DNA from: Eubacteriales bacterium
GTDB taxonomy: Bacteria > Bacillota > Clostridia > Christensenellales > CAG-138
Direction: 5' to 3'
Length of the DNA: 64,000 bases
Assembly (NCBI GenBank): GCA_021373115.1
Contig: JAJFTI010000002.1
Location: 25,868-89,867, forward strand
Positions within the stretch are counted from its first letter, which is position 1. Each line of letters opens with the position of its first letter. The translations under genes and the position numbers were made by a program. Of this stretch, positions 7,711-51,226 are shown one piece after another. Under the pieces are notes generated by a model. The model worked only from the letters and a program-made list of their open reading frames with translations. It made no database searches and had not been told where the DNA came from.

Positions 7711-9099
7711 TCAGCGCGATTCCGCCGGAATATCCTTTTCGAAATGCCCTCCGTAGAGCGCAGCGTCGGTATTCAGCTGCGGAAAAACTTTGTACATCAG
7801 GCGGGCGAGACGCTGAATTTGCTTGATATCCTTTTTTCGAAACGGATAGCGGTACGTGCCGGAGAGGACTTCCCGGTTCAGCTTGACGAGGTCGAGCAGA
7901 CGGAAATCCTCCACGGATTTTCCCGTGTTGTTCTGCGCATACGCAAAATAGGGCATCATCTGCAGGCTCGTGATTCGCGTGACTTCGCGGCCGCCGACCT
8001 TTCCTTTCGAAATTCGGACTTTGGCGAGGTTACCGAGCAGGGAATTCATGTCGTAGGAAAGGCAGGGCATTAAATCGCCGAGAGCGTAAAGGATCAGCCC
8101 TTCCTTCTCCTCGCCGGAGAACGGGTCGGTAAAACGATACCGCTCGGCCGGTTGGATCGTATGCGCGTGGTTGCCCAGAATGAAGTCCACGCCGCATTCC
8201 TCCATGATCCGGTGCCCCATATCGATGCCGATCTGCAGAGGAAACGATTCGTATTCCATGCCCCAGTGCAGGCTGGCGACGACGATATCCGCTCCGCGTT
8301 CACGCGCCAGACGCACATGTTCATGAACCATGGAGAGATCCGTCCCTTCCCGGTTCAGGCGGATATAGTTGACCAGAAAGCTCTTTTCCGCAGGCGGCTC
8401 CTTGCCGTTGACGGCGTAGGTATACGCGAGCATCGCAATTTTCACGCCGTTGATCTCCACAAGCGGAAAATCGTCCCGCTCCTGCGCGGATTTTGCGGTG
8501 CCGACATGGCCGCAACTTTGAGAATTGAGGAAGTCGATCGTCGCAAACAGGCCGTCCTCGCCCTGGTCGAGCGCGTGGTTGTTGCCGGTGGAGAGGAAGT
8601 TCGGGCCTTTGCCGCCGTTCACGATATGCGCAAACATCTCCGGTGTGTTGTTGAGGTTTGCGGTGGTAAAGATGTTACCGAGGAACCCTGCCGGGCGGCC
8701 GGGTACGAGCGGCGTTTCCAGATTGGCAAAGCGAAGATCCGCCTCCGCGTAAAATGCTTCCACATCGCCCCAGAGGTGCTTCGTATTTTCCGGCGTAAGC
8801 AGACCGGTAGTGAGCAGATCCCCTGCGGCGCAGAGCGTCACGGCGGTCGTTTCCATAAAACCTTCGTCGGTAAAGTCCAGATTTTGTTCGGCAAAATATT
8901 CTTCAATATGTTTACCGTATTCTCCGACTTCGATTTCCCGAACAAGGTATTTATAGCCATACCAGATCTTTTCTTCCAGGTTCATGTAGGTGAAATTGTC
9001 CTCGAAAATCTGCGGATAACGGTACTTTCTGCCTTTGAAAAAGCCGACAATGCGGCAGAAGAGCTTAAAAAGCGAAACGACGAATTCCATAAGATGCAT
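7711..9099 (-). CDS. CapA/PGA_cap family metallophosphatase-like protein
   Basis: NLETPL, GNNHALDQGEDG, ASLHWGMEY and LGNHAHT blocks are typical of the CapA family. Start is ambiguous (ATG 9099 or 9090; AAAGGAG lies 3 or 12 nt upstream). Track start 9186 rejected. Confidence 0.75.
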   Translation of the reverse strand: MHLMEFVVSLFKLFCRIVGFFKGRKYRYPQIFEDNFTYMNLEEKIWYGYKYLVREIEVGEYGKHIEEYFAEQNLDFTDEGFMETTAVTLCAAGDLLTTGLLTPENTKHLWGDVEAFYAEADLRFANLETPLVPGRPAGFLGNIFTTANLNNTPEMFAHIVNGGKGPNFLSTGNNHALDQGEDGLFATIDFLNSQSCGHVGTAKSAQERDDFPLVEINGVKIAMLAYTYAVNGKEPPAEKSFLVNYIRLNREGTDLSMVHEHVRLARERGADIVVASLHWGMEYESFPLQIGIDMGHRIMEECGVDFILGNHAHTIQPAERYRFTDPFSGEEKEGLILYALGDLMPCLSYDMNSLLGNLAKVRISKGKVGGREVTRITSLQMMPYFAYAQNNTGKSVEDFRLLDLVKLNREVLSGTYRYPFRKKDIKQIQRLARLMYKVFPQLNTDAALYGGHFEKDIPAESR

Positions 9100-9219
9100 A
9101 CGCTCCTTTTGCAGTCGTGCGGCGGGAAAAAGCCGGTTTGCCGCCGGTTTGTTCGTTTCCGCGCATACACGCGAAGACCGGCGCATCCGCTTTCCGCGGG
9201 CGCGCCGGCTGAAATCGCG

Positions 9220-10362
9220 CTAGAATGTGATGTAGTCGCAGCGGATGGCGAACATGTTTTCAAACGTGTATCCGCTGAACACGAAATGGGTCACATATAC
9301 CGTTTCGCCGTCCGCGGCTTCATTCAGGCAGGCGGTCATTTTTTCCATGTCGCAGCGTCCGTCGTCCGGCATCCCGCGGTCGATCCAGCCGATGGCATAG
9401 TCGGTGCAGGCTTCGATCATCGCCATATTGACCGCCACCGGCCAGGTGGAGATGCGTCCCGTCATCCCGTAGGAAGCGACGCTCTTTTGAATCTCGCCGA
9501 TGATATAGGGAATGTCGCTGGACTTGTCTTCCGGAATCTGAATGCCCAACGCGTTTGGGAACCCGTCCAGAGGGGACTCGCCGCAGGACTGCGGGAAGAT
9601 CGCGCCGCCTTCGCAGATCGCCTTGATCAGCGGCTCCTGCATGGTGGTATTGGTTGCGTAAAAAGCGGTGTCCTTGCCGTATTTTTCGATTTCGCGGGGA
9701 ACGTCCTCCAGAATGAACTGCTGTGTGCCGGAAAATCCGGCGTCGCCCTGCGGGTCGGGAGCGGTGACGTCCACAAAGGTGATCCCCAGCTTTTCGCAAT
9801 TCGCTTTGAGCAGGTCGTGCCGCGCGGCAATGGCGACCATGCTCATATGCCGCGGAAACGAGTAGTGGATGAAGGTCTTTGCGCCGAGCTCTGCCGCCTG
9901 TGCGGGGAGCATGTTGCCTACGCCTTCGATCTCGTCGCAGGCGAGGATGACGTCCGCGACCTGAGCCTGCATGGACGGATCCTCGCCGGGGGTGGTGAAC
10001 AGCACGAGCAGGTCCGGATTGATCTCGCGCGCTTTCTTTATGGCCGCCGTCGCGCCGGTGATGGACTGGTCGAATACCAGCGCTTTGACGTCCGGATCGG
10101 AAACCAGGTTGAGCACATCGGAAATGGTGGTTTCCACTTCCTTGGCGAAGTTATCCGGGTAGGTGGCGACAACGACACGATCGCCGTATTCTTTCTTCAT
10201 GAGCATTGCGCCCTGATAGTTCTCCTCGCCCTGCGACACGGTGGAGGTGATGATTGCCACCTTCCCGGCGCCGGCGCCCGCTTGATCCTTGGCGGCGGAG
10301 CCGCAGCCGGAGAGCGAAATGAGCAGGATTGCCGCCAATAAAAAACACACCGCTTTTTTCAT
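9220..10362 (-). CDS. DUF3798-type periplasmic-binding-fold lipoprotein (putative ABC substrate-binding protein)
   Basis: MKKAVCFLLAAILLISLSGC lipobox. VAIITSTVSQGEENYQGAMLMKKEYG..ATYPDNFAKEVETTISDVLNLVSDPDVKALV resembles DUF3798 proteins as I remember them. GGGAGG RBS. Confidence 0.75.
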   Translation of the reverse strand: MKKAVCFLLAAILLISLSGCGSAAKDQAGAGAGKVAIITSTVSQGEENYQGAMLMKKEYGDRVVVATYPDNFAKEVETTISDVLNLVSDPDVKALVFDQSITGATAAIKKAREINPDLLVLFTTPGEDPSMQAQVADVILACDEIEGVGNMLPAQAAELGAKTFIHYSFPRHMSMVAIAARHDLLKANCEKLGITFVDVTAPDPQGDAGFSGTQQFILEDVPREIEKYGKDTAFYATNTTMQEPLIKAICEGGAIFPQSCGESPLDGFPNALGIQIPEDKSSDIPYIIGEIQKSVASYGMTGRISTWPVAVNMAMIEACTDYAIGWIDRGMPDDGRCDMEKMTACLNEAADGETVYVTHFVFSGYTFENMFAIRCDYITF

Positions 10363-10551: not shown

Positions 10552-11328
10552 ATGACAGAAAAAAACGGCCCGACCGTAAATGCGGTCGACAGAGCGCTGG
10601 GCATTATTGAAACGCTCTATGAATCCGGCGGCGAGATGGGGATTGCGGATATCGCGCGGAAAACGGGGGAATACCAGAGCACGATCTTTCGCACACTGAT
10701 TACGCTGCAGGCGCGGGGATTTGTTTACCAGAACTCGGCAAACAGCAAATACGGGCTGGGCATGAAGCTTTTCAGCATCGGCATGGGCGTGCGGGGCGGA
10801 ATGGTGATTGTTCGAGTCGTGGAGCCATTTGCAAAGCGTCTCTGCGAGGAGATTGGCGAAACCATCAATGTTTCCGTTCGGGACGACCAGAAGACGGACG
10901 AGTATTACAGCCTCCTCGTACATCAGGAGGTCAAGAAAGGCCAAGCGCTCGGCGTCAGCCAGAACCTTGGCAGCAGCACGCTTTGCTATTATTCCGCGGT
11001 AGGGAAAGCGCTTCTTGCCTATTCGGAGGATTTAAATCCGGAGCGCGTAAGGCGCGGGGAATTTTTAAGCTTTACGGAACACTCGATTTCGGACCCGGAG
11101 ACGATGCTCAAGGAGCTGGAAACCATCCGCCGCCAGGGGTATGCGCTGGACAACGAGGAGCAGGAAAAGGGACTGTTCTGTGTAGCCTGCCCGGTTTTTG
11201 ACCGGCAGAACCGCATTCGGGCGGCCGTCAGCGTCAGCGGATACGTGGTGCGCATTCAAGAAATTGGTATCGAGAGCATTCTGCAGAAACTCCGGCCCGC
11301 CTGCAAAGAAATTGGCGTGCTGCTCTAA
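10552..11328 (+). CDS. IclR family transcriptional regulator
   Basis: N-terminal winged HTH (VNAVDRALGIIETLYESGGEMGIADIARKTGEYQSTIFRTLITL) plus an IclR effector domain. Start ATG 10552 follows GAGGTGG. Confidence 0.9.
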   Translation: MTEKNGPTVNAVDRALGIIETLYESGGEMGIADIARKTGEYQSTIFRTLITLQARGFVYQNSANSKYGLGMKLFSIGMGVRGGMVIVRVVEPFAKRLCEEIGETINVSVRDDQKTDEYYSLLVHQEVKKGQALGVSQNLGSSTLCYYSAVGKALLAYSEDLNPERVRRGEFLSFTEHSISDPETMLKELETIRRQGYALDNEEQEKGLFCVACPVFDRQNRIRAAVSVSGYVVRIQEIGIESILQKLRPACKEIGVLL

Positions 11329-11476: not shown

Positions 11477-11505
11477 TTGACGCGGCTTTTCTGCGGTGGT
11501 ATATT
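11477..11505 (+). promoter_or_regulatory. Promoter of the aminotransferase operon
   Basis: TTGACG, 17 nt, TATATT, with TGg immediately upstream of the -10 (extended -10 type). Confidence 0.6.
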
Positions 11506-11519
11506 CTAGGCAATTAAAA

Positions 11520-11603
11520 CAGAACGGCATTCTGCTGAATAGAATTGCTTGAATGAAGCAGTGAATTACTCAACCTGCAAACCGCCGTTCTGGATTCCTT
11601 TTT
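11520..11603 (+). promoter_or_regulatory. Leader hairpin followed by a U-run (candidate attenuator)
   Basis: CAGAACGGC (11520-11528) pairs with GCCGTTCTG (11584-11592). Inner helix ATTCTGCT/AGCA(gt)GAAT. A TTTTT run ends at 11603. About 210 nt of leader remain before ATG 11815. Confidence 0.4.
11551..11573. promoter_or_regulatory. Shared motif copy 2 GAATGAAGCAGTGAATTACTCAA
   Basis: Identical to copy 1 except for the 5-nt insert. Lies about 40 nt downstream of the 11477 promoter, inside the leader hairpin. Confidence 0.5.
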
Positions 11604-11814: not shown

Positions 11815-13008
11815 ATGATATTGGCCGAGAGGATGCAGCGCGTGAAAGGATCGGAAATCCGGAGCGTGGGAAAGAAGATTGCCGCGCGGAATTCCGCCGA
11901 CCTGATCAAACTGTCCGCCGGAATACCGGATGAGGCGCTGTTTCCCGCAGAAGAGCTGAAAGCGGCTACGCTGCCGCTGTTTGACGAACCGCTGCTGCCA
12001 TCGCTGCAATACGGGCTGACTAAAGGCGACACGCGCCTGATCCATCTAATCGCCGAACGGATGAAACAGGCCGAGCGGATGGAAATCCCGGAGAAGAACA
12101 TTCTCATTACGACAGGCTGTCAGCAGGGCATCTCCCTCAGCAGCGTGGCGCTGCTGGACAGGGGGGACGTTGTCCTCGTTGAAAAACCAACTTATATGGA
12201 CGGTCTTAACGCGAGCATTCCCTACGAATGCCGGTTTATCGGGGTAGAAACGGATGACGACGGTATGGTGGCCGAGGCGCTGGAAACAGCGCAGCGAACA
12301 ATTCCGCGCGTCAAGATGATCTACGTGATCCCGAATTTCCAGAACCCGACCGGCAAGGCGTGGCCGCTGAAACGCCGGCGCGAGTTCATGGATGTGGTTC
12401 AAAAATTTCCGGATCTGATGGTCGTTGAGGACAACCCCTATGGCGAGCTTCGTTTCCGCGGCGAGTTCATTCCTTCGCTCAAGTCGTTTGATACGCTGGG
12501 GCAAGTGATCTATCTTGGATCGTTCTCCAAGGTGCTCAGCCCGGGGCTTCGCGTGGCATGGGTGGTTGCGCATGACGACCTGATTGAAAAACTGGAGATT
12601 CTGAAAGAGGGGTTCGACCTGCAGTCCAACCAGTTTGCGCAGTCGCAGGTGGTCAACTACCTGCTGCAGAACGACCTTACCGCGCATGTGGAGAAGCTCC
12701 GCGCGGCATATAAGGAAAAGTGCGACACCATGCTGCGGGAGATCAAGCGCACATTCCCGCCGGAGGCGAAGGTGATCGAACCCGACGGCGGCATGTTCAT
12801 CTGGGTGAGTCTGCCGGAGTATATTAACACGAGCGATATGCTCGCGGAGGCGCTGGACGCGGGCGTTTCGTACATTCCGGGCATCTCATTTTTTGCCGAC
12901 GGACGGGGAACCAACGGCCTGCGGCTGAATTTCACTTCAAACTCCTGCGAGCGGATCAAGCTGGGGATAGAACGTCTCGCGGGCGTTGTAAAGAAAAACA
13001 TCCGCTGA
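11815..13008 (+). CDS. PLP-dependent aminotransferase (class I/II fold, 2-aminoadipate/aromatic aminotransferase-like)
   Basis: NFQNPTG, EDNPYGELRF and the PLP-lysine block SFSKVLSPGLRVAWVV. AAAGGAG RBS. Confidence 0.9.
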   Translation: MILAERMQRVKGSEIRSVGKKIAARNSADLIKLSAGIPDEALFPAEELKAATLPLFDEPLLPSLQYGLTKGDTRLIHLIAERMKQAERMEIPEKNILITTGCQQGISLSSVALLDRGDVVLVEKPTYMDGLNASIPYECRFIGVETDDDGMVAEALETAQRTIPRVKMIYVIPNFQNPTGKAWPLKRRREFMDVVQKFPDLMVVEDNPYGELRFRGEFIPSLKSFDTLGQVIYLGSFSKVLSPGLRVAWVVAHDDLIEKLEILKEGFDLQSNQFAQSQVVNYLLQNDLTAHVEKLRAAYKEKCDTMLREIKRTFPPEAKVIEPDGGMFIWVSLPEYINTSDMLAEALDAGVSYIPGISFFADGRGTNGLRLNFTSNSCERIKLGIERLAGVVKKNIR

Positions 13009-13075
13009 GCGAGCATTGGCAAGGTTCACGGACGGAACAGAACAGACGCAACGGAAAGGCCGGGTATTCAGAACG

Positions 13076-14242
13076 ATGAAAGAACGCATCAAGACGACCA
13101 TCCAGGCGATGGCTCCGGAGCTGACCGAGCTGGCCAAATGGATTTACGCCCATCCGGAAATTGCGAACGAAGAGTTTGAATCTTCGAAGAAAGTAATGGA
13201 ATTTCTGGCGCGCGCGGGGTTTGTGATTACGCCGGATTTTGCGGGACTGCCGACGGCGTTCAAGGCCGTTTGCAAGAACGGGGATGGCCCGAAGGTTGCC
13301 ATCATGGCGGAGTACGACGCGCTGCCCGGCCTCGGCCATGGCTGCGGGCATCATCTGATCGCCGCGATGGGCGCGGGCGCGGGCGTCACGCTGGCAAGCG
13401 CGCTGGGTGACAGGGCGGGGGAGATCGCCGTATTCGGTACGCCGGCGGAGGAGACGGGGGACGGGAAGTCCGCCCTTGCCAAAGCGGGCGCGTTTGACGA
13501 CTACGATATCGGAATCATCATGCATCCCTGCTCGATTCACTATACGTCGCCGGTCATACTCGCCATCAGCGCGTATGAGTTTACGTTTGCCGGCCGGGCG
13601 AGCCACGCGGGCGCGCGGCCGTACGAGGGCGTTAACGCGCTGGACGCGGTGGCGCTGATGTACAATGCGGTGGGCTTGATGCGCCAGCAGCTGAGGGACG
13701 GCACTCGCGTTGCGGGTATCGTTGTAAACGGCGGGGACGTGACCAACGTAATTCCGGGGCGCTGTACCGTCCGCTACGAAGTGCGTACAAAAAAGCTCGA
13801 GTATTTCCATACCGTCGTCGACCGCCTGGTGAACTGCGCCAAAGGCGCCGCGCTCGCAACCGGCTGCACGGTGGAACACACCCAGTGCGAACCGCTCTGC
13901 ATGCCGCTGGAAGAAAGCCCGCTGCTCGCGGCGGAGTATCAAAAATTGCTTGGCGAATACGGCTTGTTTGAGGAAGGCGAGGATGTTATCGGTTCAACGG
14001 ACATGGGCGACGTGAGCCGGATTATTCCGTCGCTGCATCCTTTTTTCAAGGTATCCACCAACTTCGAACTGCCGCATACGGAGGAATTCCTGCGCGCGGT
14101 CAACGAGCCCTATGCGTATACGCAGATGCTGCTCGGCACGGAACTTCTCGCAAGGCTCGGCCTCACCGTGTTCGAGGACGAACCACTGCTGAAAAAACTC
14201 CGCGCGGAGAAAACACAGAAGGCGGCGCAGAATAAAGCGTAG
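13076..14242 (+). CDS. M20 family metallohydrolase (amidohydrolase/dipeptidase, PM20D2/AbgB-like)
   Basis: N-terminus ..LTELAKWIYAHPEIANEEFESS.., GHGCGHHLIAA and GTPAEE blocks. ATG 13076 chosen over TTG 13016. Confidence 0.85.
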   Translation: MKERIKTTIQAMAPELTELAKWIYAHPEIANEEFESSKKVMEFLARAGFVITPDFAGLPTAFKAVCKNGDGPKVAIMAEYDALPGLGHGCGHHLIAAMGAGAGVTLASALGDRAGEIAVFGTPAEETGDGKSALAKAGAFDDYDIGIIMHPCSIHYTSPVILAISAYEFTFAGRASHAGARPYEGVNALDAVALMYNAVGLMRQQLRDGTRVAGIVVNGGDVTNVIPGRCTVRYEVRTKKLEYFHTVVDRLVNCAKGAALATGCTVEHTQCEPLCMPLEESPLLAAEYQKLLGEYGLFEEGEDVIGSTDMGDVSRIIPSLHPFFKVSTNFELPHTEEFLRAVNEPYAYTQMLLGTELLARLGLTVFEDEPLLKKLRAEKTQKAAQNKA

Positions 14243-14359
14243 GCCGTATCCGCGTTCTTTTGCAGCAAAGACAGCTGCTATTATTCAAACAATCCAAGTC
14301 GCAGAAAAAACCGCGCGGCGGAAAAAAGAAAAGTGAAATTGGGAAGATAGGTGTATTCC

Positions 14360-15658
14360 ATGGAAAAAATCGGGAAAAAGGTTGGCAAACTGTCCATTTT
14401 TCTCTCGCTGGCGAGCGTGAGCATGGTTTTTGCCGTCATGTACAGCATTCCGTACGTCAAGTCCGTGTTCTACGACGGCATGCTGGCAATCACCGGCGTG
14501 AGCAATGCCGAACTCGGTGTTCTGATGACGATTTACGGCCTTGGCGAAGTGTTCACGCCCGGTATCGGCGGTATCCTAGCCAGCAAGTACGACCATAAAA
14601 TCATCATTCTGATCTCCTCGATCGGCACGGCGGTCGCCTGTGCATTGATGGCGCTGTTTCCGTCGTTTGCTATGGCGCTCGTCGTTTGGACCATTCTGGT
14701 CTTTTCGACGCTGTTCATGGTCTGGGGAACACTCTTTAAGGCGATCCGCCTGATCGTTTCGGACGAGGAACAGGGCAAGATATCCGGCTATTTCGGCGGG
14801 TTCATCGGCGTTTGCTATCTGGTTGTCAACGGGCTTTGCCTCGTGATTTACAGCATGGTCGGCGGGGAAAACGCGATTCTCGGCATGAAGGGCGTGTTCT
14901 ACGCGCTGGCGGCCATGATGGTGCTGTTCTCGGTTCTTTGCTACTTTGCGCTCAAGAGGACCGGTGTCAACAATCCAACCGCCGTGGAAGAAATGAAAAA
15001 AGACACCGAGACGAAACTCTCGTTCTGGAATGAACTCAAGGCCGTTATGAAGTATCCCGGCGTGTGGTACTTTGGCGGTACGCTCTTCTGCGTATATTCC
15101 ACCAACATTGCCATTCAGTACTTTACGCCGTATTTCACCAGCGTTCTGCAGGCGGCGGCGGTGTTCAGCGGCGTGATCGCCATTGTCCGCTCCTACGGCA
15201 TGCGTCTACTCGGCTCCCCGACCGGCGGATTCCTGGCGGGCAAGCTCAAATCGGTATCCAACGCGATTATCATTGCGTTTATCGGAACGGGGCTGAGCAT
15301 CCTCGCGGTGCTGCTGCTGCCGGATAACTTCACCTCCATCGGCATTCTCATTGCGCTGGTGCTGCTCGCGTCCTTCTTCAACAATGTTGGGAATGGAATT
15401 GAGTATGCAATTCCAACGGAAGGCCGCGTCCCGGTTAAATACCACGCGGCGGCCATCGGCTTTGGCAGCGCTCTCGGTTTTGCGCCGGACCTGTTTGAGC
15501 ATGTGCTCTTCGGCCACTGGATCGATAAGTTCGGCGCGGACGGCTACACCTACATCTTCATCTATGGCGTAGCGGCCGCGGTTGCCGGAATTGCGCTTTT
15601 GATCAAGTACAACGCGGACAAGAGACGCCTTGCTGCGGCTGCGTCGAGCGCGGCCTAA
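14360..15658 (+). CDS. MFS transporter
   Basis: About 12 predicted hydrophobic helices arranged 6+6 around a charged central loop (..KRTGVNNPTAVEEMKKDTETK..). ATG 14360 preferred over GTG 14351. Confidence 0.75.
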   Translation: MEKIGKKVGKLSIFLSLASVSMVFAVMYSIPYVKSVFYDGMLAITGVSNAELGVLMTIYGLGEVFTPGIGGILASKYDHKIIILISSIGTAVACALMALFPSFAMALVVWTILVFSTLFMVWGTLFKAIRLIVSDEEQGKISGYFGGFIGVCYLVVNGLCLVIYSMVGGENAILGMKGVFYALAAMMVLFSVLCYFALKRTGVNNPTAVEEMKKDTETKLSFWNELKAVMKYPGVWYFGGTLFCVYSTNIAIQYFTPYFTSVLQAAAVFSGVIAIVRSYGMRLLGSPTGGFLAGKLKSVSNAIIIAFIGTGLSILAVLLLPDNFTSIGILIALVLLASFFNNVGNGIEYAIPTEGRVPVKYHAAAIGFGSALGFAPDLFEHVLFGHWIDKFGADGYTYIFIYGVAAAVAGIALLIKYNADKRRLAAAASSAA

Positions 15659-15680
15659 ACAAGCGATGCAATCGGAGACA

Positions 15681-15878
15681 ATGGAAAAGGTCAAGGTAAA
15701 CGAAGAACGCTGCAAGGGCTGTTACCTTTGCATTGCCAGCTGCAGGAAAGGCGCGATCCGTCTCTCCGGCAGAACGAACAAAAGGGGAATCGTAACCGTA
15801 GCGGTGGATCAGGCGCTCTGCGTCCAGTGCGGCGTCTGCTACACCATGTGCCCGGATCTCGTATTCGAGATTCTCTGA
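15681..15878 (+). CDS. 2-oxoacid:ferredoxin oxidoreductase delta subunit (2x[4Fe-4S] ferredoxin)
   Basis: Two cluster motifs, CKGCYLCIASC and CVQCGVCYTMCP, in 65 aa. GGAG before ATG 15681. Confidence 0.8.
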   Translation: MEKVKVNEERCKGCYLCIASCRKGAIRLSGRTNKRGIVTVAVDQALCVQCGVCYTMCPDLVFEIL

Positions 15879-16030
15879 GGGCTGAATCCAATTCACACAT
15901 CCATCATTTACCGCGCAGGGGACGGTGAAACCGTTCCGGGGCTTTGATTTCGGAGCGGGCGGCGCCGTTTCCTGCGCGATTTTTCTGCCTTTTCGTCGAG
16001 AACAAACGCCCGGTAACGGAGGTTATATCA

Positions 16031-17107
16031 ATGGAAACAATGCTGTTAAAAGGAAATGAGGCACTTGCCGAAGGCGCGGTGCGCGGCGGCTGCCGGTTCT
16101 ATGCCGGATACCCGATCACGCCGCAATCCGAAATACTGGAGTATATGAGCTGGCGGCAAAACGAAGTGGGCGGCTCGTTTATTCAGGGTGAATCGGAAAT
16201 TGCGAGCGTGAATATGGTGTTTGCGGCAACCGCGCTCGGCGCGCGCGCGCTGACTTCGTCCTCCGGGCCCGGCTTTTCGCTCAAACAGGAGGGAATCGCC
16301 TATTGGGTCTCCGCCGGAATGCCTGCGGTCGTTGCCTGTGTTTCGCGCTATGGCATTGGCGACGGGTTCATCGGCCCCGGCCAGGACAACTACTGGCAGG
16401 CCGTCAAGGGCGGCGGGAACGGGGACTATCACCTGCTTGTTCTCGCGCCGAACAGCGTCCAGGAAAACATGGACATGGCCTACGAATCCTTCGAGCTGGC
16501 CGAAAAATATATGCATCCCGTACTGATCCTATCGGATGCGACGATCGGGCAGATGCTTGAACCCTGTACGGCTCCGCCCATGAAGGAGTACGACAAGGAC
16601 AAGGCGCCCTGGGCGCTGAAAGGTACGCCGATCGGTCAAAAAAACAAGGTCATTACGGACATGACCTATAACCAGGATATCGACGAGTGGAACCGGGACT
16701 ATATCCGCAAGATGCGCCTCATTATGGAAACCGAACAGCGCTGGGAGGAGATCTCCGTTCCGGATGCGGACGTCGTATTCGTTGCCTATGGCATTTCTTC
16801 GCGGATTGCCGAAGGTGCGGTGCGCCTTGGCCGCGAACGCGGGCTGAAACTCGGGCTGATTCGGCCGATTACGCTCTGGCCGTTCCCGAGAAAGGCGTTT
16901 GCGCGGCTGTCGGATTCCGTCAAAGGACTTGTTACCGTTGAGCTGAACATGATGGGGCAGATGCGCGAGGACGTGATACTGGCCAGCCACTGGCGCTGCC
17001 CGGCCTACTCGGTGACCACGGCGCAGCGGATACCGGAAGTGGAGCAGCTCGTCTGCTTTGCCGAGAGTGTTCTGAATGGCAGCGCGGTTGAAGAGGAGGT
17101 GTTTTAA
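16031..17107 (+). CDS. 2-oxoacid:ferredoxin oxidoreductase alpha subunit (KorA/VorB-like)
   Basis: LLKGNEALAEGAVRGGCRFYAGYPITPQSEI is the typical N-terminus of alpha subunits. GGAGG RBS before ATG 16031. Confidence 0.85.
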   Translation: METMLLKGNEALAEGAVRGGCRFYAGYPITPQSEILEYMSWRQNEVGGSFIQGESEIASVNMVFAATALGARALTSSSGPGFSLKQEGIAYWVSAGMPAVVACVSRYGIGDGFIGPGQDNYWQAVKGGGNGDYHLLVLAPNSVQENMDMAYESFELAEKYMHPVLILSDATIGQMLEPCTAPPMKEYDKDKAPWALKGTPIGQKNKVITDMTYNQDIDEWNRDYIRKMRLIMETEQRWEEISVPDADVVFVAYGISSRIAEGAVRLGRERGLKLGLIRPITLWPFPRKAFARLSDSVKGLVTVELNMMGQMREDVILASHWRCPAYSVTTAQRIPEVEQLVCFAESVLNGSAVEEEVF

Positions 17108-17109
17108 CA

Positions 17110-17832
17110 ATGGCGAAATCGGCACCCTCGATCATGAAATGCGAAAACATGTTCTGCGCAGGCTGCGGGCATTCGCTGTTTGATCGCCTGCTTGGCGAAG
17201 TGCTTACCGAAATGGATATTGTTGGCGAAAGCATCAGCTGTTCGGATATTGGCTGTAACCATATGTATCAATACTCCATGGCGGTTGATACGGTCGTCCC
17301 CCCCCACGGCAAGATGGGCGCGGCGATGGCGGCTATGAAGAAAGTGCGGCCGGACAAGTATATTTTTTCCATTGCGGGGGACGGCGGCGCCTACGCTATT
17401 GGCCTTGGAGAAACGCTCTCCGCCGCCACACGAAACGACAACGTGACTTTTTTTGTGATGAACAACACGGTCTATGCCATGACCGGCGGGCAGATGGCGC
17501 CGACAACCATGCCGGGGCAATACTCCTCCTCCAGCATAAAAGGCCGCACCGCGGAGGAGCACGGGCGGACGTTCGACGTCGTCAAGCTCATGCAGAACCT
17601 CGAGATCGCCTACCTCGCGCGCTGTACGGTGACGAATGCCGCCGAGATGGCGAAGACCAAACGCTGCATTAAAAAAGCGCTGGAAAAACAACGCGACGGC
17701 AAGGGCTTTTCACTGGTCGAGGTGCTTGTGCCCTGCCCGACCAACTGGGGACTGACCCCGCCGGAGGCTATGCGGCACATTGAGAATGATCTCGTGCCGT
17801 ACCTGCCGCTCGGCGAGTATATCGACCGTTAA
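17110..17832 (+). CDS. 2-oxoacid:ferredoxin oxidoreductase beta subunit (TPP-binding)
   Basis: CAGCGH cluster/TPP region and the GDGG..NN..Y.MTGGQ TPP motif (IAGDGGAYAIG...VMNNTVYAMTGGQ). Starts 2 nt after the alpha stop. Confidence 0.85.
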   Translation: MAKSAPSIMKCENMFCAGCGHSLFDRLLGEVLTEMDIVGESISCSDIGCNHMYQYSMAVDTVVPPHGKMGAAMAAMKKVRPDKYIFSIAGDGGAYAIGLGETLSAATRNDNVTFFVMNNTVYAMTGGQMAPTTMPGQYSSSSIKGRTAEEHGRTFDVVKLMQNLEIAYLARCTVTNAAEMAKTKRCIKKALEKQRDGKGFSLVEVLVPCPTNWGLTPPEAMRHIENDLVPYLPLGEYIDR

Positions 17833-17852
17833 CCGGGGAACGGAGAAAGAGA

Positions 17853-18392
17853 ATGCTGAACGAAATCATTTGCACGGGCTTTGGCGGGCAAGGCGTTTTA
17901 ACCGCAGGCAAGATTATTGTGTACGCTGCCTACAAAAAAGGGCTGAAGGTGACCTGGTTTCCTTCCTATGGGAATGAAATGCGCGGCGGCAGCGCAAACT
18001 GCAACGTCGTGCTCAGCGACCAGCGCATCGCTAGCCCGTATGTGAACCATCCGGACACGCTGATTGAGCTGAACTGCCCGGCGGTGGACCGCTTTGAACC
18101 GGCGATGAAACCCGGCGGGTACTTCTTTATTAATTCCTCGCTTCTAGATCCCGCGCGGGAGTTCCGCGGGGATATCACCGTTATTCGTACGCCGGTGACC
18201 GAGATTGCCCAGAACTTGAAAAATGAACATGCGGCAAATATCTGCATGCTGGGGCAGTGGGTCCGGGTTCTGGAGCAGTTCTCCAAAGACGAATTTTTAC
18301 GCTGCATGGGCGAGTACTTCGACCAGCTCGGCAAGGGAAAGTATAACGCGAGAAACGCCGAGGCGTTTGAAGCGGGGTACGCCTTCGTATAA
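17853..18392 (+). CDS. 2-oxoacid:ferredoxin oxidoreductase gamma subunit
   Basis: GFGGQGVLTAGKII..YGNEMRGG is the hallmark of gamma subunits. Confidence 0.85.
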   Translation: MLNEIICTGFGGQGVLTAGKIIVYAAYKKGLKVTWFPSYGNEMRGGSANCNVVLSDQRIASPYVNHPDTLIELNCPAVDRFEPAMKPGGYFFINSSLLDPAREFRGDITVIRTPVTEIAQNLKNEHAANICMLGQWVRVLEQFSKDEFLRCMGEYFDQLGKGKYNARNAEAFEAGYAFV

Positions 18393-18406
18393 GGAGGGAT
18401 CAAGGC

Positions 18407-20515
18407 ATGGACTTAAAGAAACTTCTAAAGCCCTCGAAAATCGCCATAGTCGGCGCGAGCGAAAAGGAAAACCTGGGCGGGTTTACCGTGCGTATGATGC
18501 TGGCCCACGCGGGCGGCCGCATCGACGACGTATACTTTGTCAATCCCGGACGGGAGAGCATATTCGGCCGCGCCTGCTACCCGTCGCTTTCCGCGCTGCC
18601 GGAACGAATCGACCTCGCCATCCTCGCGACTGCCAAGGCGACCGTCGAATCGCTGGTGGAGGAAGCCGCCCAAATGGGCGCGGGCGGCGTTGTGGTGTAC
18701 GCAAGCGGATATGGCGAGACCGGAAAGCCGGAGGATAAGCAGGCGGAGGAGTCGCTCAAGGCTCTTTGCCGAAGGCTGAATCTTGCGCTCATGGGGCCGA
18801 ACTGTGCGGGATTTCTCAATCTGGTGGACAAGGTTCCCGCCATGGGGTTTCTCACCACCGTTCACGAGAGGGTGGGCAGGGTAGGCCTTGTTTCCCAGAG
18901 CGGCATGATCTGCACGCTTCTTTCGGACAGCGGGAAAGCGGATTTTTCTTATGTAATCTCCTGCGGCAACAGTAAAATTGTCGAAGTGGTGGACTACATC
19001 GACTTTCTTGTGGACGATGCGGACACCGGCGTGATTGCCGCCTATATTGAGGGAGTTTCCAATCCGGCGAAGTTCCTGGCTACCCTGAAAAAGGCCGCTA
19101 TGAAGCAAAAACCGGTAATTCTGCTCAAGATCGGCCGTTCCGAGGCGGGCAGCCGTTCCGCGGCCTCCCATACGGGCAGTCTTTCCGGTTCGGACGCGGC
19201 ATTCGACGCAATCTTTCAAAAGTACGGCGTGATCCGCGTGGACGACCTGGAGGATTTGATCGGCATGAGCAGCATCCTCTCCACGCTGTCCGTCCTGCCA
19301 AAGGGCGGCAGGGTCGTTTCCCTCAACGGCTCCGGCGGAGAGAACGGGGTTTCCTGCGACGTAGGCCACCTGTACGGAATAAACTTTCCGCCGTTTACCG
19401 AAAGTACGGCGGAGAAGCTCCGGTCGATTCTGCCGGACTATGCCTCCATCCATAACCCGCTGGATACGACCGCGATGATCTGCTACGATACGGCGGTCTT
19501 TGCCGACGCGGCGGAAACCATCATCAACGACCCGAATTTCGACCTCGCGCTGGTAGGGCTGACCATCGTTGGCGAGCTGACCGACCTTTGCGTCAAGCAC
19601 ATGTCGGAAGGGTTGGTCAAACTCGTCCGGGAGAAGCGAATCGACAAACCCGTTCTCGTTGTTCCCGCGGTGGAAGCGGGGCGCATGCCGGAGTATGTGA
19701 ACATGCTCAAAGACGCGGGAATCCCCGTGACAGCGCCGTGTTTCTATGCGTATAAACACGTGAAGAAGCTGCTCGATTATTGCGCCTGGCGCGCGTTTCT
19801 GCCGGAGATCACGCTGGAGGATGCGGTTGTATCGCGCCCGGGCGGCTTGAAGCGCTGCGCGCTGAGCGAGCATAAATCAAAGGAGATGCTGCGCTCCTTC
19901 GGTGTGAGCGTACCGCAGGAAACGATCGCCTGCAGTGCCTGCGAGGCCGCCGATGCGGCGCGGCGGATCGGCTTTCCGGTGGTCATGAAGATTGAGTCGG
20001 ACGATATTCTGCATAAGTCCGACATGGGCGGTGTCGTGCTGAACATTACGAGCGAGTTTGAGGCGGAGGAAGCCTTCCGCCGCATTATGGAAAACGCCGC
20101 GATCAACCGCCCGGATGCTCGCATCAACGGCGTTCTGGTGCAGAAAATGCTGCCGGGCGGACTGGAAGCGATCATCGGCGTGAACCGGGACGAGCTTTTT
20201 GGTCCCATGGTGCTTCTGGGCCTCGGCGGGGTGAATACGGAACTGCTCCGGGATGTCGCGCTGTATCCCGCGCCGTTTGGCAAGGCGGAAGCGCTGCGCA
20301 TGATTGGCTCTCTCAAGCTGGCGCGGCTGTTCAGCGGCTTTCGGGGAAGCGCGGCGCTGGACGTGGATGCGCTCGCGGAGCTGCTTGCAGGCATCAGCCG
20401 TTTTGCATGTGAAAACCGCGTTCATTTGGCGGAACTGGATTTGAACCCTGTTTTCGTTTATGAAGAAGGATGTGGCGTGGCGATTGCGGATGCGCTGATC
20501 GTGCTGGAAGAGTAG
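18407..20515 (+). CDS. ADP-forming acyl-CoA synthetase (fused alpha/beta, acetate--CoA ligase (ADP-forming) family)
   Basis: 702 aa. N-terminal CoA-binding start PSKIAIVGASEKENLGGF, phosphohistidine-loop-like SAASHTGSLSG, and a C-terminal ATP-grasp part (..FPVVMKIESDDILHKSDMGGV..). Confidence 0.85.
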   Translation: MDLKKLLKPSKIAIVGASEKENLGGFTVRMMLAHAGGRIDDVYFVNPGRESIFGRACYPSLSALPERIDLAILATAKATVESLVEEAAQMGAGGVVVYASGYGETGKPEDKQAEESLKALCRRLNLALMGPNCAGFLNLVDKVPAMGFLTTVHERVGRVGLVSQSGMICTLLSDSGKADFSYVISCGNSKIVEVVDYIDFLVDDADTGVIAAYIEGVSNPAKFLATLKKAAMKQKPVILLKIGRSEAGSRSAASHTGSLSGSDAAFDAIFQKYGVIRVDDLEDLIGMSSILSTLSVLPKGGRVVSLNGSGGENGVSCDVGHLYGINFPPFTESTAEKLRSILPDYASIHNPLDTTAMICYDTAVFADAAETIINDPNFDLALVGLTIVGELTDLCVKHMSEGLVKLVREKRIDKPVLVVPAVEAGRMPEYVNMLKDAGIPVTAPCFYAYKHVKKLLDYCAWRAFLPEITLEDAVVSRPGGLKRCALSEHKSKEMLRSFGVSVPQETIACSACEAADAARRIGFPVVMKIESDDILHKSDMGGVVLNITSEFEAEEAFRRIMENAAINRPDARINGVLVQKMLPGGLEAIIGVNRDELFGPMVLLGLGGVNTELLRDVALYPAPFGKAEALRMIGSLKLARLFSGFRGSAALDVDALAELLAGISRFACENRVHLAELDLNPVFVYEEGCGVAIADALIVLEE

Positions 20516-20881
20516 GCGCGGCGCTTGCGTTTTAAATAGCGGCGCGGATATTCCATGCTGCCGCCGCAGTAAACCGCGCGCCGGACGGCTTCGCAGGTTG
20601 CGCGCTGCACGGCGCGCGGCGGCGGAGCCGGTTCTGTTGCGGTGCGCGCGTTCGGGAGTACTTCGCCGCTGCGCGGAAATGGAATCCGGCGAAATCCGGA
20701 AGAAAGCGGCGGTTCCGCCCGCTGTTTTCCACAGGATGCGAATTCCGGAATTCCGAAAATGAAATGCCTTTCTATTATGGTGAGAATCCGCTATACTAAT
20801 AGCCAACCATTGGAAAACCGCGGATTTTTTCGTGTATGGTTTGAAAAGAAAAGAAAATCCGACCGCAGATGAGGCGATGAT

Positions 20882-22480
20882 TTGGAAAGCGAACAGCCTA
20901 GGTTAAGCCTACGGCACATCTCAAAATCGTACTCCGGCAACCGCGTACTCAGCGACGTTTCGCTGGATGTGCGCGCGGGGGAAATTCACGCGCTGCTCGG
21001 CGAGAACGGCGCGGGGAAATCCACGCTCATGAAAATCCTCATGGGCATGGACGAGATTCGCCAGAGCGGCGGATTCGAAGGCGAGATTTTACTGGACGGT
21101 GAACCGGTGCAGATCGATTCGCCCAAGCGTGCTCACGAGCTGGGCGTATGCATGGTGCATCAGGAACTGATGCTCGTAAACGGCTTTACGGTGGCGGAGA
21201 ATATTCGCGTTGGCCGGGAACCCGTAAAGCGGATCGGCCGCGGGGAACGGGACGCCGCCTGCCTGCCCATCGATTTTTCACGTCTGCGCGAACAAGCCAA
21301 AACCGCGCTGGAGCGGCTGCACGTCGAGCTGGACGGGGATATGCCGATTGCCGAATTGCCGGTAACCCAGATGCAGTTCGTGGAGATTGCACGAGAGGTT
21401 GACCGGCCGGGAATCCGGCTGCTGATACTGGACGAACCGACCGCCGTGCTCAACGACGAGGAAGCCGAATGCCTGCTCGATAGAATGGCGCGCCTCAAGC
21501 AATCGGGACTGAGCATTCTGTTTATTACACACCGCCTTGGAGAGGTGCTGCGCTGCTGCGACCGCATTACGGTTCTGCGGGACGGCGCGGTGGCAGGGCG
21601 CGCCGAGAGCGGGAAAACGAGCGCGGCGGCAATTGCGGAAATGATGATTGGCAAGCGCCTCCTGGCCATTCACACTTCGGAGCGTATTTCGTTTGGCGAA
21701 CCGACGGAGGAGCCCGTTTTACAGCTGAACGGATTCTGGGCGGATCTGCCGGGCGAGCGTGTGGAGCGGCTGGATCTGGAGGTGCGCCGGGGCGAGATTC
21801 TCGGGCTCGGCGGCCTTTCCGGGCAGGGCAAGATCGGATTTGCCAACGGCCTGATGGGCCTCTGCCCGTCCGGCGGCGTTGTCATTCTGGACGGACGGGA
21901 GCTTTCACTTGGGGATGCGGGGAGCGTGCTGCGAGCGGGATTTGGGTTCGTTTCCGAAGACCGCAGGCGCGTTGGCCTTCTTTCCGGCAGCTCGATCGAG
22001 GAAAACATTGCTATCCCCGCCATGCTCAACTTCGGCCGGTTCCTCCGCCGCGTCGGCCCGGTTCAAATGATCGACCGCCGCGCCATGCGGGCAAACGCGC
22101 TGGAATTCATCCATGCGCTCGATATTCGCTGCACCGGGCCGGATCAGCCGGCCGGGATGCTTTCCGGCGGCAATCAGCAGAAGGTCTGCGTCGCGCAGGC
22201 ACTCACGCTCCGCCCGCGTATTCTGCTTGTCAGCGAACCCACGCGCGGCATCGATATCGGCGCAAAGCATTTGCTGCTCAACGTTCTGCTCCGGCTGAAC
22301 CGCGAGCAGGGGATTACCATCGTGTTTACTTCTTCCGAGCTGCAGGAACTTCGCTCCGTCTGCGACCGGATCGCAATTATCTCGCGCGGAAGGGTGGCGG
22401 GTATTCTGCCGCCGGACGCGCCGGAAGCGGAGTTCGGGCTGATGATGAGCGGGCTGGACGTAAAAAGGAGCGGTGTATGA
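20882..22480 (+). CDS. ABC transporter ATP-binding protein, duplicated NBD (CUT2/ribose type)
   Basis: Walker A GENGAGKST, signature LSGGNQQK and a second degenerate NBD. TTG start 20882, 7 nt after GAGG. Confidence 0.9.
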   Translation: MESEQPRLSLRHISKSYSGNRVLSDVSLDVRAGEIHALLGENGAGKSTLMKILMGMDEIRQSGGFEGEILLDGEPVQIDSPKRAHELGVCMVHQELMLVNGFTVAENIRVGREPVKRIGRGERDAACLPIDFSRLREQAKTALERLHVELDGDMPIAELPVTQMQFVEIAREVDRPGIRLLILDEPTAVLNDEEAECLLDRMARLKQSGLSILFITHRLGEVLRCCDRITVLRDGAVAGRAESGKTSAAAIAEMMIGKRLLAIHTSERISFGEPTEEPVLQLNGFWADLPGERVERLDLEVRRGEILGLGGLSGQGKIGFANGLMGLCPSGGVVILDGRELSLGDAGSVLRAGFGFVSEDRRRVGLLSGSSIEENIAIPAMLNFGRFLRRVGPVQMIDRRAMRANALEFIHALDIRCTGPDQPAGMLSGGNQQKVCVAQALTLRPRILLVSEPTRGIDIGAKHLLLNVLLRLNREQGITIVFTSSELQELRSVCDRIAIISRGRVAGILPPDAPEAEFGLMMSGLDVKRSGV

Positions 22481-23514
22481 AACAATCGCTGATTGCGCGC
22501 GTGGGTCTGCCAAGGATCATCATCTTCGCGTTTCTGCTGCTCCTGCTCGCGCTGTGCGTTCTGACGAAGCAGGATCTCGGTGCGATTACGGGGGATGTGA
22601 TCGTCCGCTTCGGTATGAACGGCATCCTTGCGCTGTCGATGTTCCCCTCCATCCTTTGCGGCGCAGGTCTGAACTTCGGCGTGCCCATCGGGGTAATCGC
22701 GGGGCTCGTTGGCGGCCTTCTGAGCGTTGAATTCGGCATGACCGGGTTTGGCGGGGTTGCCGCGGCGTGCCTGTTTTCCGTACCGATTGCGGTCGCGTTC
22801 GGGTATCTTTACGGGAAACTTCTTAATACCGTGAAAGGCAACGAAATCGTGGTTGGCAACTATATCAGCTACGCGGCGGTTTCGCTCATGTGCATTTTCT
22901 GGCTGCTTATGCCGTTTACGAACCCGGCCATCACCTGGCCGATCCGCGGCACCGGCGTGCGCACGACCGTTACGCTGGAAGGGTTTTACGACGGTCTGCT
23001 CAACGACACGCTTTCGTTTACCGTGCTGGGGGTCAAGATTCCAACGCTGTTGCTGGCGGCTTTTGCGCTCGCCTGCGTTTTGATTTGGCTTTTTTCACGC
23101 AGTAAAACCGGTCTTTTGATGAAAGCGGCGGGCGAAAATCCAATGTACGCTGCCGCTGCGGGCATCTCCGTGGACGCTATGCGTTTAAAGGGGATAATTC
23201 TCTCCACCTTGCTTGCCGCGGTCGGAATCGTGATCTATTCCCAATCCTACGGGTTTTATCAGCTTTACAACGCGCCGCTCAATATGGCGTTTGCGCCCGT
23301 CGCGGCGGTGCTTCTCGGAGGAGCGACCACGCGGACGGTGAAAATACGCCACGTGATCATCGGCACGTTCCTGTTTCAGGCGATCATCACGGTGGCCATG
23401 CCCGTTGCCAACCAGCTTGCGCCGGACGGCGGGCTTGCGGAGGTTGCGCGGATTATTGTTTCCAACGGAATCATTCTCTACGCGCTGATGCAGAGCGGAG
23501 GTGAGCGCAAGTGA
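22477..23514 (+). CDS. ABC transporter permease
   Basis: Polytopic membrane protein. Its start overlaps the ATPase stop (ATGA). Belongs with the 20882 ATPase. Confidence 0.8.
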   Translation: MKQSLIARVGLPRIIIFAFLLLLLALCVLTKQDLGAITGDVIVRFGMNGILALSMFPSILCGAGLNFGVPIGVIAGLVGGLLSVEFGMTGFGGVAAACLFSVPIAVAFGYLYGKLLNTVKGNEIVVGNYISYAAVSLMCIFWLLMPFTNPAITWPIRGTGVRTTVTLEGFYDGLLNDTLSFTVLGVKIPTLLLAAFALACVLIWLFSRSKTGLLMKAAGENPMYAAAAGISVDAMRLKGIILSTLLAAVGIVIYSQSYGFYQLYNAPLNMAFAPVAAVLLGGATTRTVKIRHVIIGTFLFQAIITVAMPVANQLAPDGGLAEVARIIVSNGIILYALMQSGGERK

Positions 23515-35798: not shown

Positions 35799-35964
35799 CC
35801 GACCCAAGTGGCTTTTTATGGGATGCGTGAAATCGAAATAACATAATTTCAGTTAAGATATATTTTGCTTATGGAGAATCTATCTAGAGCAGAGCATAAA
35901 AAAAGGGATGCCGCAACGAAGGATTTCACTGAACCTGTAAAGTAGAGTAGAGAAAAAATCTAAC

Positions 35965-36002
35965 AAAGCCCTGATCCGAGTGAAATTGGACAGGGCTTTT
36001 TT
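35965..36002. terminator. Rho-independent terminator
   Basis: AAAGCCCTG/CAGGGCTTT stem with a 17-nt loop, followed by TTTTTT. Confidence 0.6.
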
Positions 36003-51225: not shown

Positions 51226-51226
51226 C

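Follow-up and report, generated by a model that had tools for sequence, protein, structure and literature searches.

What a compact row of eight genes in a clostridial genome is built to ferment, and in which direction its reactions run, is the question raised by a locus of Eubacteriales bacterium (assembly GCA_021373115.1). The row occupies positions 11815-20515 on the plus strand of the window, by which we mean the whole analyzed stretch of 64,000 nucleotides (contig JAJFTI010000002.1, positions 25,868 to 89,867 of the forward strand). A first-pass annotation had proposed an aminotransferase, an M20 hydrolase, a major facilitator superfamily (MFS) transporter, the four subunits of a 2-oxoacid:ferredoxin oxidoreductase (OFOR) and an ADP-forming acyl-CoA synthetase (ACD). 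The listing of open reading frames (ORFs) and the family scans confirm all eight genes, with significant Pfam and NCBIfam matches, and three of the gene calls have been corrected. An IclR-family regulator, a conserved promoter and a leader are part of the same unit as well.

With slightly better than even confidence, we read the unit as an IclR-controlled oxidative Stickland-type catabolic module that turns an amino acid, probably of the Phe/Tyr type, into a shortened acid, ATP and reduced ferredoxin. In a first step, the aminotransferase would pass the amino group of a (most likely aromatic) amino acid to 2-oxoglutarate. The delta-alpha-beta-gamma OFOR, which resembles 2-ketoisovalerate oxidoreductase (VOR), would then decarboxylate the arylpyruvate oxidatively to arylacetyl-CoA, yielding reduced ferredoxin, and the fused ACD would convert the thioester to the free acid with formation of ATP by substrate-level phosphorylation. 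The M20 enzyme would plausibly act as a lineage-specific feeder that hydrolyzes an N-acyl amino acid or dipeptide to free the amino acid, and the MFS protein would carry an organic anion, bringing in the conjugate or expelling the acid product. We infer the direction of flux and the class of substrate, of which an aromatic one is the best-supported guess.

Conserved linkage and the probable ATP-yielding step

The same set of genes recurs well beyond the window. A metagenome scan and contig look-ups, scored with the window proteins and with neighboring ORFs clustered, gave 19 non-redundant related loci, comprising 16 of a close clade (alpha subunit at least 72% identical to that of the window; Clostridia of 30-57% G+C) and three of a sister clade. 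Among the partner genes, an IclR regulator is present in 15 of the 19 loci, an ARO8-type aminotransferase in 14, an MFS transporter in 13 and an NhaC-family transporter in nine. The final step is represented by an ACD in eight loci, a phosphotransbutyrylase (PTB) homolog in six and a butyrate-kinase (BUK) homolog in five, and an M20 hydrolase is found in six. Judged by this recurrence in relatives of such different G+C, the arrangement is not a chance juxtaposition. The generic "VorB" loci used as an outgroup (at least 71, at 42-52% identity) are mostly bare delta-alpha-beta-gamma operons. In a neighbor-joining tree of the alpha subunit, the close clade is monophyletic and sister to the second clade, with M20 limited to the subclade of the window and NhaC to the others. 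The nearest relative, a congeneric genome (locus L110), has an ACD of 84% identity, an alpha subunit in the same 90% cluster and the same gene order including the flanking genes, and two Joint Genome Institute (JGI) metagenome contigs are 99-100% identical to the window. The aminotransferase, M20 and beta proteins of the window have identical counterparts in an NCBI metagenome-assembled genome of a Eubacteriales bacterium; an exact-sequence search with the ACD gave no match. Further close relatives occur in Clostridioides difficile, Mogibacterium and Bacilliculturomica; in a Mogibacterium metagenome-assembled genome, the alpha and ACD genes of the clade lie together on one contig.

The last gene of the row (18407-20515, plus strand) encodes a fused alpha-beta NDP-forming acyl-CoA synthetase of 702 amino acids, composed of a CoA-binding domain (PF13380, CoA_binding_2, 4e-18), a ligase-CoA flavodoxin domain (PF13607, Succ_CoA_lig, 3e-44) and an ATP-grasp domain (PF13549, ATP-grasp_5, 8e-69). 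Its best solved relative is the ADP-forming 4-hydroxybutyrate-CoA ligase of Nitrosopumilus (8wzu, 5e-106), matched over the full length. His255 stands in an SHTGS motif and His536 in an HKSD motif that aligns with the same motif of 4xyl_B; these two conserved histidines are presumably the phosphohistidine sites. In about half of the close relatives, PTB and BUK homologs occupy the place of the ACD, and in the alpha tree the ACD-linked and PTB+BUK-linked subclades are interleaved, the sister clade being entirely ACD-linked. The exchange indicates that the two alternatives would do the same job, namely the conversion of an acyl-CoA to acid and ATP. Because the swap has occurred repeatedly in nature, the ACD can be expected to turn the acyl-CoA product of the OFOR into free acid and ATP. 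Of the sequence-level evidence on what the ACD does, this is the strongest, and it supports, if indirectly, an enzyme that runs in the ATP-forming direction on the OFOR product. The core chemistry originally proposed, consisting of transamination, ferredoxin-dependent decarboxylation to an acyl-CoA and an ADP-forming ATP step, draws its support from this swap and from the conserved linkage.

The exchange also bears on a route run backwards, for salvage or biosynthesis, in which the synthetase would spend ATP to activate an imported acid such as phenylacetate, the OFOR would carboxylate it reductively and transamination would give the amino acid. Elsewhere the window holds many sugar-type ABC transporters and LacI or AraC regulators, suggesting a saccharolytic host, and the MFS profile resembles organic-anion importers, both of which would suit such a route. 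It nevertheless appears very unlikely, since exchange with PTB+BUK is characteristic of catabolic branches that yield ATP, a biosynthetic route has no role for the tightly linked M20 hydrolase, and close relatives reside in asaccharolytic amino-acid fermenters (C. difficile, Mogibacterium, Bacilliculturomica).

The oxidoreductase, its partners and the substrate

The OFOR carries the complete signature of a four-subunit enzyme, with a separate two-motif delta ferredoxin and a PF01558 gamma subunit next to alpha and beta. Delta (15681-15878, plus strand) is a 2x[4Fe-4S] ferredoxin of 65 amino acids (Fer4_7, 4e-14) with two CxxCxxCxxxC motifs, encoded in the frame 15630-15878; an overlapping ORF at 15728-15928, without any family match, was ruled out as delta. 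The start of delta is probably the ATG at 15681, preceded by GGAG, and its homolog in L110 is called at 66 amino acids. For alpha (16031-17107, plus strand; 358 amino acids; POR_N, 5e-40, and PFOR_II), a TTG start at 15944 was replaced by the ATG at 16031, which has GGAGG in front and gives a length equal to the call in L110. Beta (17110-17832, plus strand; 240 amino acids; TPP_enzyme_C, 3.5e-20) and gamma (17853-18392, plus strand; 179 amino acids; PF01558, 3.2e-37) complete the enzyme. Active-site features were placed through alignments onto the Sulfolobus OFOR structures (StOFOR; PMC5020499). In alpha, YPITP is found at 27-31, and Arg106 aligns to StOFOR1 Arg344a, the conserved arginine that binds the 2-oxoacid carboxylate (PMC5020499). 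In beta, the thiamine pyrophosphate motif GDG...NN is intact (GDG at 90-92, NN at 118-119), and Cys16, Cys19, Cys49 and Cys209 align to the ligands of the proximal [4Fe-4S] cluster of StOFOR.

The first-pass annotation had likened the OFOR to 2-oxoglutarate-type enzymes and had listed glutamate and 2-aminoadipate among the candidate substrates, which would lead through 2-oxoglutarate or 2-oxoadipate to succinyl- or glutaryl-CoA. The aminotransferase is indeed related to Thermus LysN (7e-68) and human KAT-II/AadAT, the best solved relative of the ACD acts on 4-hydroxybutyrate, and the best solved matches of alpha are enzymes of the 2-oxoglutarate oxidoreductase (KOR) type. However, no VOR-type structure is among the PDB matches, so the KOR-type matches do not discriminate between KOR and VOR. 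The NCBIfam models for KOR and 2-oxoglutarate oxidoreductase (OGOR) score far below their cutoffs (201.2 versus 579 bits and 266.1 versus 411 bits, respectively). In beta, Met52 stands at Cys+3, counted from the third cluster cysteine, and aligns to StOFOR1 Lys49b; this lysine is required for the use of 2-oxoglutarate (PMC5020499), and the 2-oxoglutarate enzymes 8ys5_C and 6n2n_B have arginine at the same position. Across the clade the residue is Met or Gln, so the basic side chain is absent. Family-model scores and this pocket residue together argue against KOR-like specificity, which we reject, and glutamate or 2-aminoadipate is an extremely unlikely substrate, the least supported of those originally listed.

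The one OFOR family model that is passed is NCBIfam VorB (NF005507), at 406.7 versus 399 bits, and VorB is also the name given to the window protein by the Prokaryotic Genome Annotation Pipeline (PGAP). Taken at face value, this would describe an ordinary branched-chain VOR operon that produces isobutyrate, isovalerate or 2-methylbutyrate. NF005507, however, is a "subfamily" model and not an equivalog, and passing it does not establish specificity for 2-ketoisovalerate. Moreover, in a comparison with generic homologs, the alpha subunits form a clade apart from the VorB proteins, to which they are 42-52% identical, and their pocket loop carries invariant changes. The clade alpha loop reads R(Y/F)GIGDG(F/Y)I..GQDNYW where generic VORs have RGGPGLG, and the beta motif is CSDIGCNH(M/Q)(F/Y)Q. 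Relative to generic VORs, the changes fall at alpha Y/F107, D111, F/Y113 and W122 and at beta H51 and Q54. Asp111, invariant in the clade, sits at the pocket position of StOFOR1 Thr349a, a position taken by Leu in generic VORs and by Thr in KORs, and beta Met124 occupies the position of StOFOR1 Leu123b. Generic VORs also usually stand in a bare delta-alpha-beta-gamma operon, and C. difficile has a separate VOR with a kinase that takes isovalerate and isobutyrate, whereas the kinetics table of its "Cd3b" enzyme, considered below, lists only phenylacetate and 4-hydroxyphenylacetate (PMC13285125). A branched-chain operon is quite improbable on these grounds. The added aromatic and polar residues would instead be compatible with a pocket for an aryl or heteroaryl side chain. 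The models of indolepyruvate oxidoreductase (IOR), an enzyme of two subunits with a fused alpha, are not reached, neither that of IOR alpha (TIGR03336, 58.6 versus 650.9 bits) nor that of IOR beta (TIGR03334, 40.6 versus 205.8 bits), and the subunits here are four and separate.

The enzyme that would supply the 2-oxoacid is a class I pyridoxal phosphate-dependent aminotransferase (11815-13008, plus strand; 397 amino acids) with a fold-type I domain (PF00155, 2.5e-30). It belongs, as originally proposed, to the 2-aminoadipate/aromatic group, that is, the ARO8 / KAT-II / LysN (ArAT-I) group, its top PDB relatives being a multiple-substrate aminotransferase of Thermococcus (1wst, 7.6e-83), Pyrococcus PH0207 (1.6e-80) and LysN. 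The motifs SFSK (with the Schiff-base lysine at 239), NPTG and DNPY are intact. PH0207 is a kynurenine aminotransferase and is placed in group G6 with the ArAT I enzymes PF0121 and OCC_04335, which prefer Phe, Tyr and Trp (PMC9986279).

For the M20 enzyme, the MFS carrier and the IclR regulator we infer the roles given here; no NCBIfam name at the equivalog level was obtained for these genes, for the aminotransferase or for the NhaC genes of the relatives. The M20D-type amidohydrolase (13076-14242, plus strand) starts at ATG 13076, which gives 388 amino acids, equal to the call in L110. It falls within the broad amidohydrolase subfamily TIGR01891 (200.9 bits versus a cutoff of 153.75), carries GCGHH at 89 (the metal-binding CGH) and PAEE at 123 (the catalytic EE), and has HmrA (3ram, 5.6e-61) and the Xaa-Arg dipeptidase PM20D2 (5.5e-56) as nearest solved relatives. 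All six loci with M20 lie in the subclade that holds the window operon. By this distribution M20 is accessory and not core, and the original description of a complete route from uptake through hydrolysis was overstated. The MFS transporter (14351-15658, plus strand; 435 amino acids; PF07690, 1.9e-19), present in 13 of the 19 loci, is core to the module. As a single sequence it has no match in the PDB, but a family profile built from 12 module-linked homologs finds DgoT (6.5e-8) and VGLUT2 (2.3e-7) as its only full-length PDB relatives, both weak. The profile points to an organic anion as the likely substrate and would allow either conjugate import or acid export. A second carrier, of the NhaC family, accompanies nine of the related loci (including L005, L092, L095 and L099-L103) and is largely exclusive with M20. 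Against the NhaC model this carrier reaches 422 bits, and against that of the arginine/ornithine antiporter ArcD 395 bits, the latter below the ArcD cutoff.

Biochemical precedent for the aromatic substrate comes from Jiang et al. 2026 (PMC13285125). In Clostridium scatologenes, the four subunits of HpdDEFG form a VOR-like OFOR that is specific for 4-hydroxyphenylpyruvate and phenylpyruvate and has PTB- and BUK-like partners; it offers, by analogy, a precedent for arylpyruvate specificity in this architecture. According to the same study, the "cluster 3" enzymes of Peptostreptococcales adjoin either homologs of Pta and Ack or ligases of the ADP-forming type. Of the C. difficile partner enzymes, the kinase next to "Cd3b" accepts phenylacetate and 4-hydroxyphenylacetate, and the ligase next to "Cd3c" takes both of these acids and indoleacetate (PMC13285125). 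The ptb-buk clusters of C. difficile number only two, CD0112-13 and CD2425-26 (PMC3633928). Since CD0112-13 belongs to the classical VOR cluster, the ortholog of the window operon, CD2425-29 (locus L003), is most likely "Cd3b". The genus Mogibacterium, moreover, is associated with phenylacetate in a statement that PMC4767291 attributes to Nakazawa 2000, and the sister-clade operon of Clostridium fermenticellae includes a permease with a Trp_Tyr_perm match. Of the substrates first listed, aromatic amino acids are therefore the best supported.

Several points weigh against the Phe/Tyr module. The Cd3b kinase is poor on phenylacetate and 4-hydroxyphenylacetate (kcat 2.2 per s, kcat/Km ~2.5e2), about 100-fold less efficient than HpdK on its own substrate (kcat/Km 3.4e4; both from the supplement of PMC13285125), and given this weak catalysis the native acid of the Cd3b type may differ from the aryl acetates. 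The equation of L003 with "Cd3b" is itself a deduction. For aromatic 2-oxoacids, C. difficile already possesses an IOR (PMC13285125, PMC6110889). Since each of the three core reactions can run both ways, the direction could also be anabolic, and the hairpin between delta and alpha, described below, could split the cluster transcriptionally. Finally, the invariant loop Asp, the beta His, the ArcD-like NhaC and the Xaa-Arg-dipeptidase-related M20 would also suit a side chain of polar, basic or heteroaromatic character.

Much of this leads to an alternative with the same pathway logic and an amino acid other than Phe or Tyr, whether polar, heteroaromatic, sulfur-containing or basic. Histidine could yield imidazole-4-acetate, tryptophan indole-3-acetate, methionine 3-methylthiopropionate and arginine 4-guanidinobutyrate. 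Besides the kinase kinetics and the separate IOR, such a substrate would suit the Asp that is invariant at its pocket position (Leu in generic VORs, Thr in KORs), an equally invariant beta His51, the recurrence of the NhaC-family transporter with its ArcD score, and the presence of an Xaa-Arg dipeptidase among the solved relatives of M20. An OFOR for histidine catabolism is not known even in Thermococcus (PMC9986279). The aryl acetates, on the other hand, are the only substrates with biochemical data for partner enzymes of the clade, the nearest solved relatives of the aminotransferase lie in a group whose characterized members act on aromatics or kynurenine (PMC9986279), and the transporter and M20 scores are all below the family cutoffs for named functions. 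We consider a substrate of this kind a possibility to be taken seriously, if a doubtful one. A bolder version is rather unlikely: the clade may serve no (hydroxy)phenylpyruvate at all, and its OFOR and ACD would have a new specificity, directed at a polar or heteroaromatic 2-oxoacid such as imidazolepyruvate, with a conjugate imported by the MFS protein and cut by M20, and with the hairpin serving as a regulated attenuator for the OFOR and ACD genes. A Phe/Tyr-type substrate thus remains the preferred reading.

Promoter, leader, internal hairpin and surroundings

The regulator (10552-11328, plus strand; IclR_C, 3.6e-37; HTH_IclR, 6.5e-13) probably starts at ATG 10552, although its ORF opens at TTG 10483; this gives 258 amino acids, and the IclR gene of L110 is likewise called at 258. 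Between it and the aminotransferase lies an intergenic region of 486 nt. Here, a sigma-70-like promoter at 11477-11505 (plus strand; TTGACG, 17 nt, TG-n-TATATT) with 10 of 12 matches and an extended -10 is the best promoter-like site within 10-25 kb of the window. It is followed by the leader, of which the first ~95 nt (11506-11600, plus strand) are conserved and contain the inverted repeats CAGAACGGC...GCCGTTCTG and ATTCTgctgaatAGAAT, which include ATTCT-N7-AGAAT; the block folds with z = -3.0. The promoter is near-identical in L110, and the promoter/leader block retains ~91% identity over 119 nt, with the remaining ~200 nt of the leader diverged. The inverted repeats could be a candidate IclR operator or a leader structure. 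Rfam returned nothing in the whole window at gathering thresholds and, in the 5' leader, no match even with E values up to 1, so there is no T-box or riboswitch match that would name the amino acid.

Downstream of the promoter, the genes are closely packed, with intergenic gaps of 2-20 nt from alpha through beta and gamma to ACD and of 22 nt between MFS and delta. The gaps around M20 are 67 and 108 nt, and that between delta and alpha is 152 nt. The delta-alpha spacer contains a 27-bp imperfect hairpin (15912-15978) that is followed by a AUUUUUCUGCCUUUUCG U-tract, the whole terminator- or attenuator-like element spanning 15912-15995 on the plus strand. The minimum free energy of the spacer is -62.7 kcal/mol (z = -4.3), a fold that not one of 200 shuffles equals. 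The hairpin is unique in the window and its core is kept in L110; it is missing in L001, L003 and L005, which have a delta-alpha gap of ~20-35 nt. Since no promoter-like site was found between the hairpin and alpha, the genes from alpha to ACD must rely on read-through. The hairpin could be a partial terminator, an attenuator or an element that affects RNA stability. The eight genes are likely to be co-transcribed, though the strong hairpin with its U-tract may break up the transcript between delta and alpha. After the ACD stop codon there is no convincing intrinsic terminator (fold z = 0.0); a terminator pattern match at 20512-20528 was rejected, as folding gives it no support.

Three long ORFs, at 8152-10341 (plus strand, 729 amino acids), 18425-19873 (minus strand, 482 amino acids) and 12956-13942 (minus strand, 328 amino acids), lie antisense to or overlap family-matched genes and are most likely artefacts of high G+C, not genes. 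Upstream of the unit, a DUF3798 binding-protein-like gene is found at 9220-10362 (minus strand), and downstream an ABC ATPase and two BPD_transp_2 permeases occupy 20882-24755 (plus strand), so that the IclR-operon unit sits as if inside a transporter locus. The same flanking transporter genes are present in L110, where the ATPase is split into calls of 399 and 131 amino acids.

Elsewhere in the window, 30941-31978 encodes a phosphotriesterase-family protein that adjoins a sugar-type ABC transporter, and 37364-38740 a URO-D-family protein downstream of a GntR regulator. At 48949-52569, a molybdopterin-containing large subunit of the xanthine-dehydrogenase family (758 amino acids) is followed by ORFs of 291 and 156 amino acids, which are probably the FAD and 2Fe-2S subunits of the same enzyme. 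Two patches of low G+C, 34000-36000 (0.415) and 56000-61000 (0.45-0.48; window mean 0.54), hold ORFs that have no Pfam match (34221-34712, 57541-59181 and 59488-60396) and a PMT_2-like membrane protein, and may be recently acquired DNA.

Relation to known systems

The closest named ortholog cluster is that of C. difficile, represented by loci L003, L088 and L089 (G+C 0.30), whose protein cluster consists of C. difficile isolates. L003 shares with the window 79% identity in alpha (CD630_24290), 74% in beta, 71% in delta and 65% in gamma, along with 52% in the aminotransferase, 49% in M20 and 35% in the MFS transporter, and an IclR gene lies upstream in both. Its order of ferredoxin, alpha, beta, gamma, buk, ptb, PLP-transferase and transporter matches CD630_24291-24230, a set of genes that rise together under Wal depletion (PMC9210968). 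CD2429A-CD2427 depends on sigma-E and is targeted directly by CcpA as well. Differences are found in the final step, where C. difficile has the homologs buk1 and ptb2 in place of the ACD, in the position of the aminotransferase and MFS genes downstream, in the lack of the delta-alpha hairpin and in M20, which is set apart by an AGCS symporter. With its orthology and shared accessory genes (IclR, aminotransferase, MFS and M20), the window operon belongs with the CD630_2429-type cluster, and this poorly characterized oxidoreductase can now be placed in a widespread, tightly conserved module that has its own regulator, aminotransferase and transporters and whose ATP-yielding last step is repeatedly swapped between an ADP-forming synthetase and a kinase/phosphotransacylase pair. 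The module matters because arylacetates and related acids from gut and digester Clostridia (phenylacetate, 4-hydroxyphenylacetate, p-cresol precursors, indole- and imidazole-acetates) have effects on hosts and on microbial communities. Being easy to express, the single-chain synthetase and the M20 enzyme offer a practical route to the substrate of the clade.

The Hpd system, compared through its published description, is similar to the window operon in its VOR-like delta, alpha, beta and gamma subunits and in the path from 2-oxoacid through acyl-CoA to acid and ATP (HpdDEFG-HpdJ-HpdK). Both types fall in one similarity cluster of homologs of pyruvate:ferredoxin oxidoreductase, in which the subcluster of HpdE (UniProt A0A0E3GSJ0) is separate from Cd3a-c (PMC13285125). 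Unlike the window operon, the Hpd system is tied to a p-cresol-forming 4-hydroxyphenylacetate decarboxylase and employs PTB- and BUK-like enzymes.

Closer in its final step is the ACD-linked sister clade, found in Blautia stercoris (L112), Clostridium fermenticellae (L114), Oceanidesulfovibrio marinus (L113), Tissierellales (L008) and Mogibacterium timidum (L009), which is possibly the "Cd3c" type. IclR, MFS, delta-alpha-beta-gamma and a fused ACD are again combined in one operon, with 44-52% identity to the window in ACD and 49-54% in alpha. The substrate-loop Asp is at Arg+7 instead of Arg+5, however, and M20 is missing. In L008, L009 and L112, an ELFV-family (Glu/Leu/Phe/Val-type) amino-acid dehydrogenase of ~383-390 residues replaces the aminotransferase directly upstream of MFS. 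These OFOR-ACD operons count against the general statement of the first-pass annotation that bacteria more often use a phosphotransacylase and a kinase, and the pairing of an OFOR with an ADP-forming ligase in bacteria has already been described (PMC13285125).

The label "archaeal-style" can be kept for the enzyme logic but not for the implied rarity in bacteria, where OFOR-ACD operons are common. Peptide fermentation in Thermococcales, with its aminotransferases, its indolepyruvate, 2-ketoisovalerate, 2-ketoglutarate and pyruvate oxidoreductases (IOR/VOR/KGOR/POR) and its acyl-CoA synthetases (ACS I/II/III), follows an identical three-step logic and gains ATP through an NDP-forming synthetase, and the best solved relatives of the aminotransferase come from this group. 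The archaeal synthetases, however, are two-subunit enzymes with dispersed genes, and the archaeal enzyme for arylpyruvates is a two-subunit IOR. The synthetase of the window is a single fused chain, and every one of its closest homologs that carries the name of a source organism is bacterial.

The generic bacterial VORs, which include PorA of C. sporogenes and Cd3a of C. difficile (PMC13285125), have the same subunit architecture and pass the same VorB model. They differ from the window enzyme in sequence to the extent given above and usually stand without an aminotransferase, IclR, MFS or ACD gene. The operon is a further member of the gene-cluster type described in C. difficile and its relatives, and is otherwise an ordinary catabolic operon.

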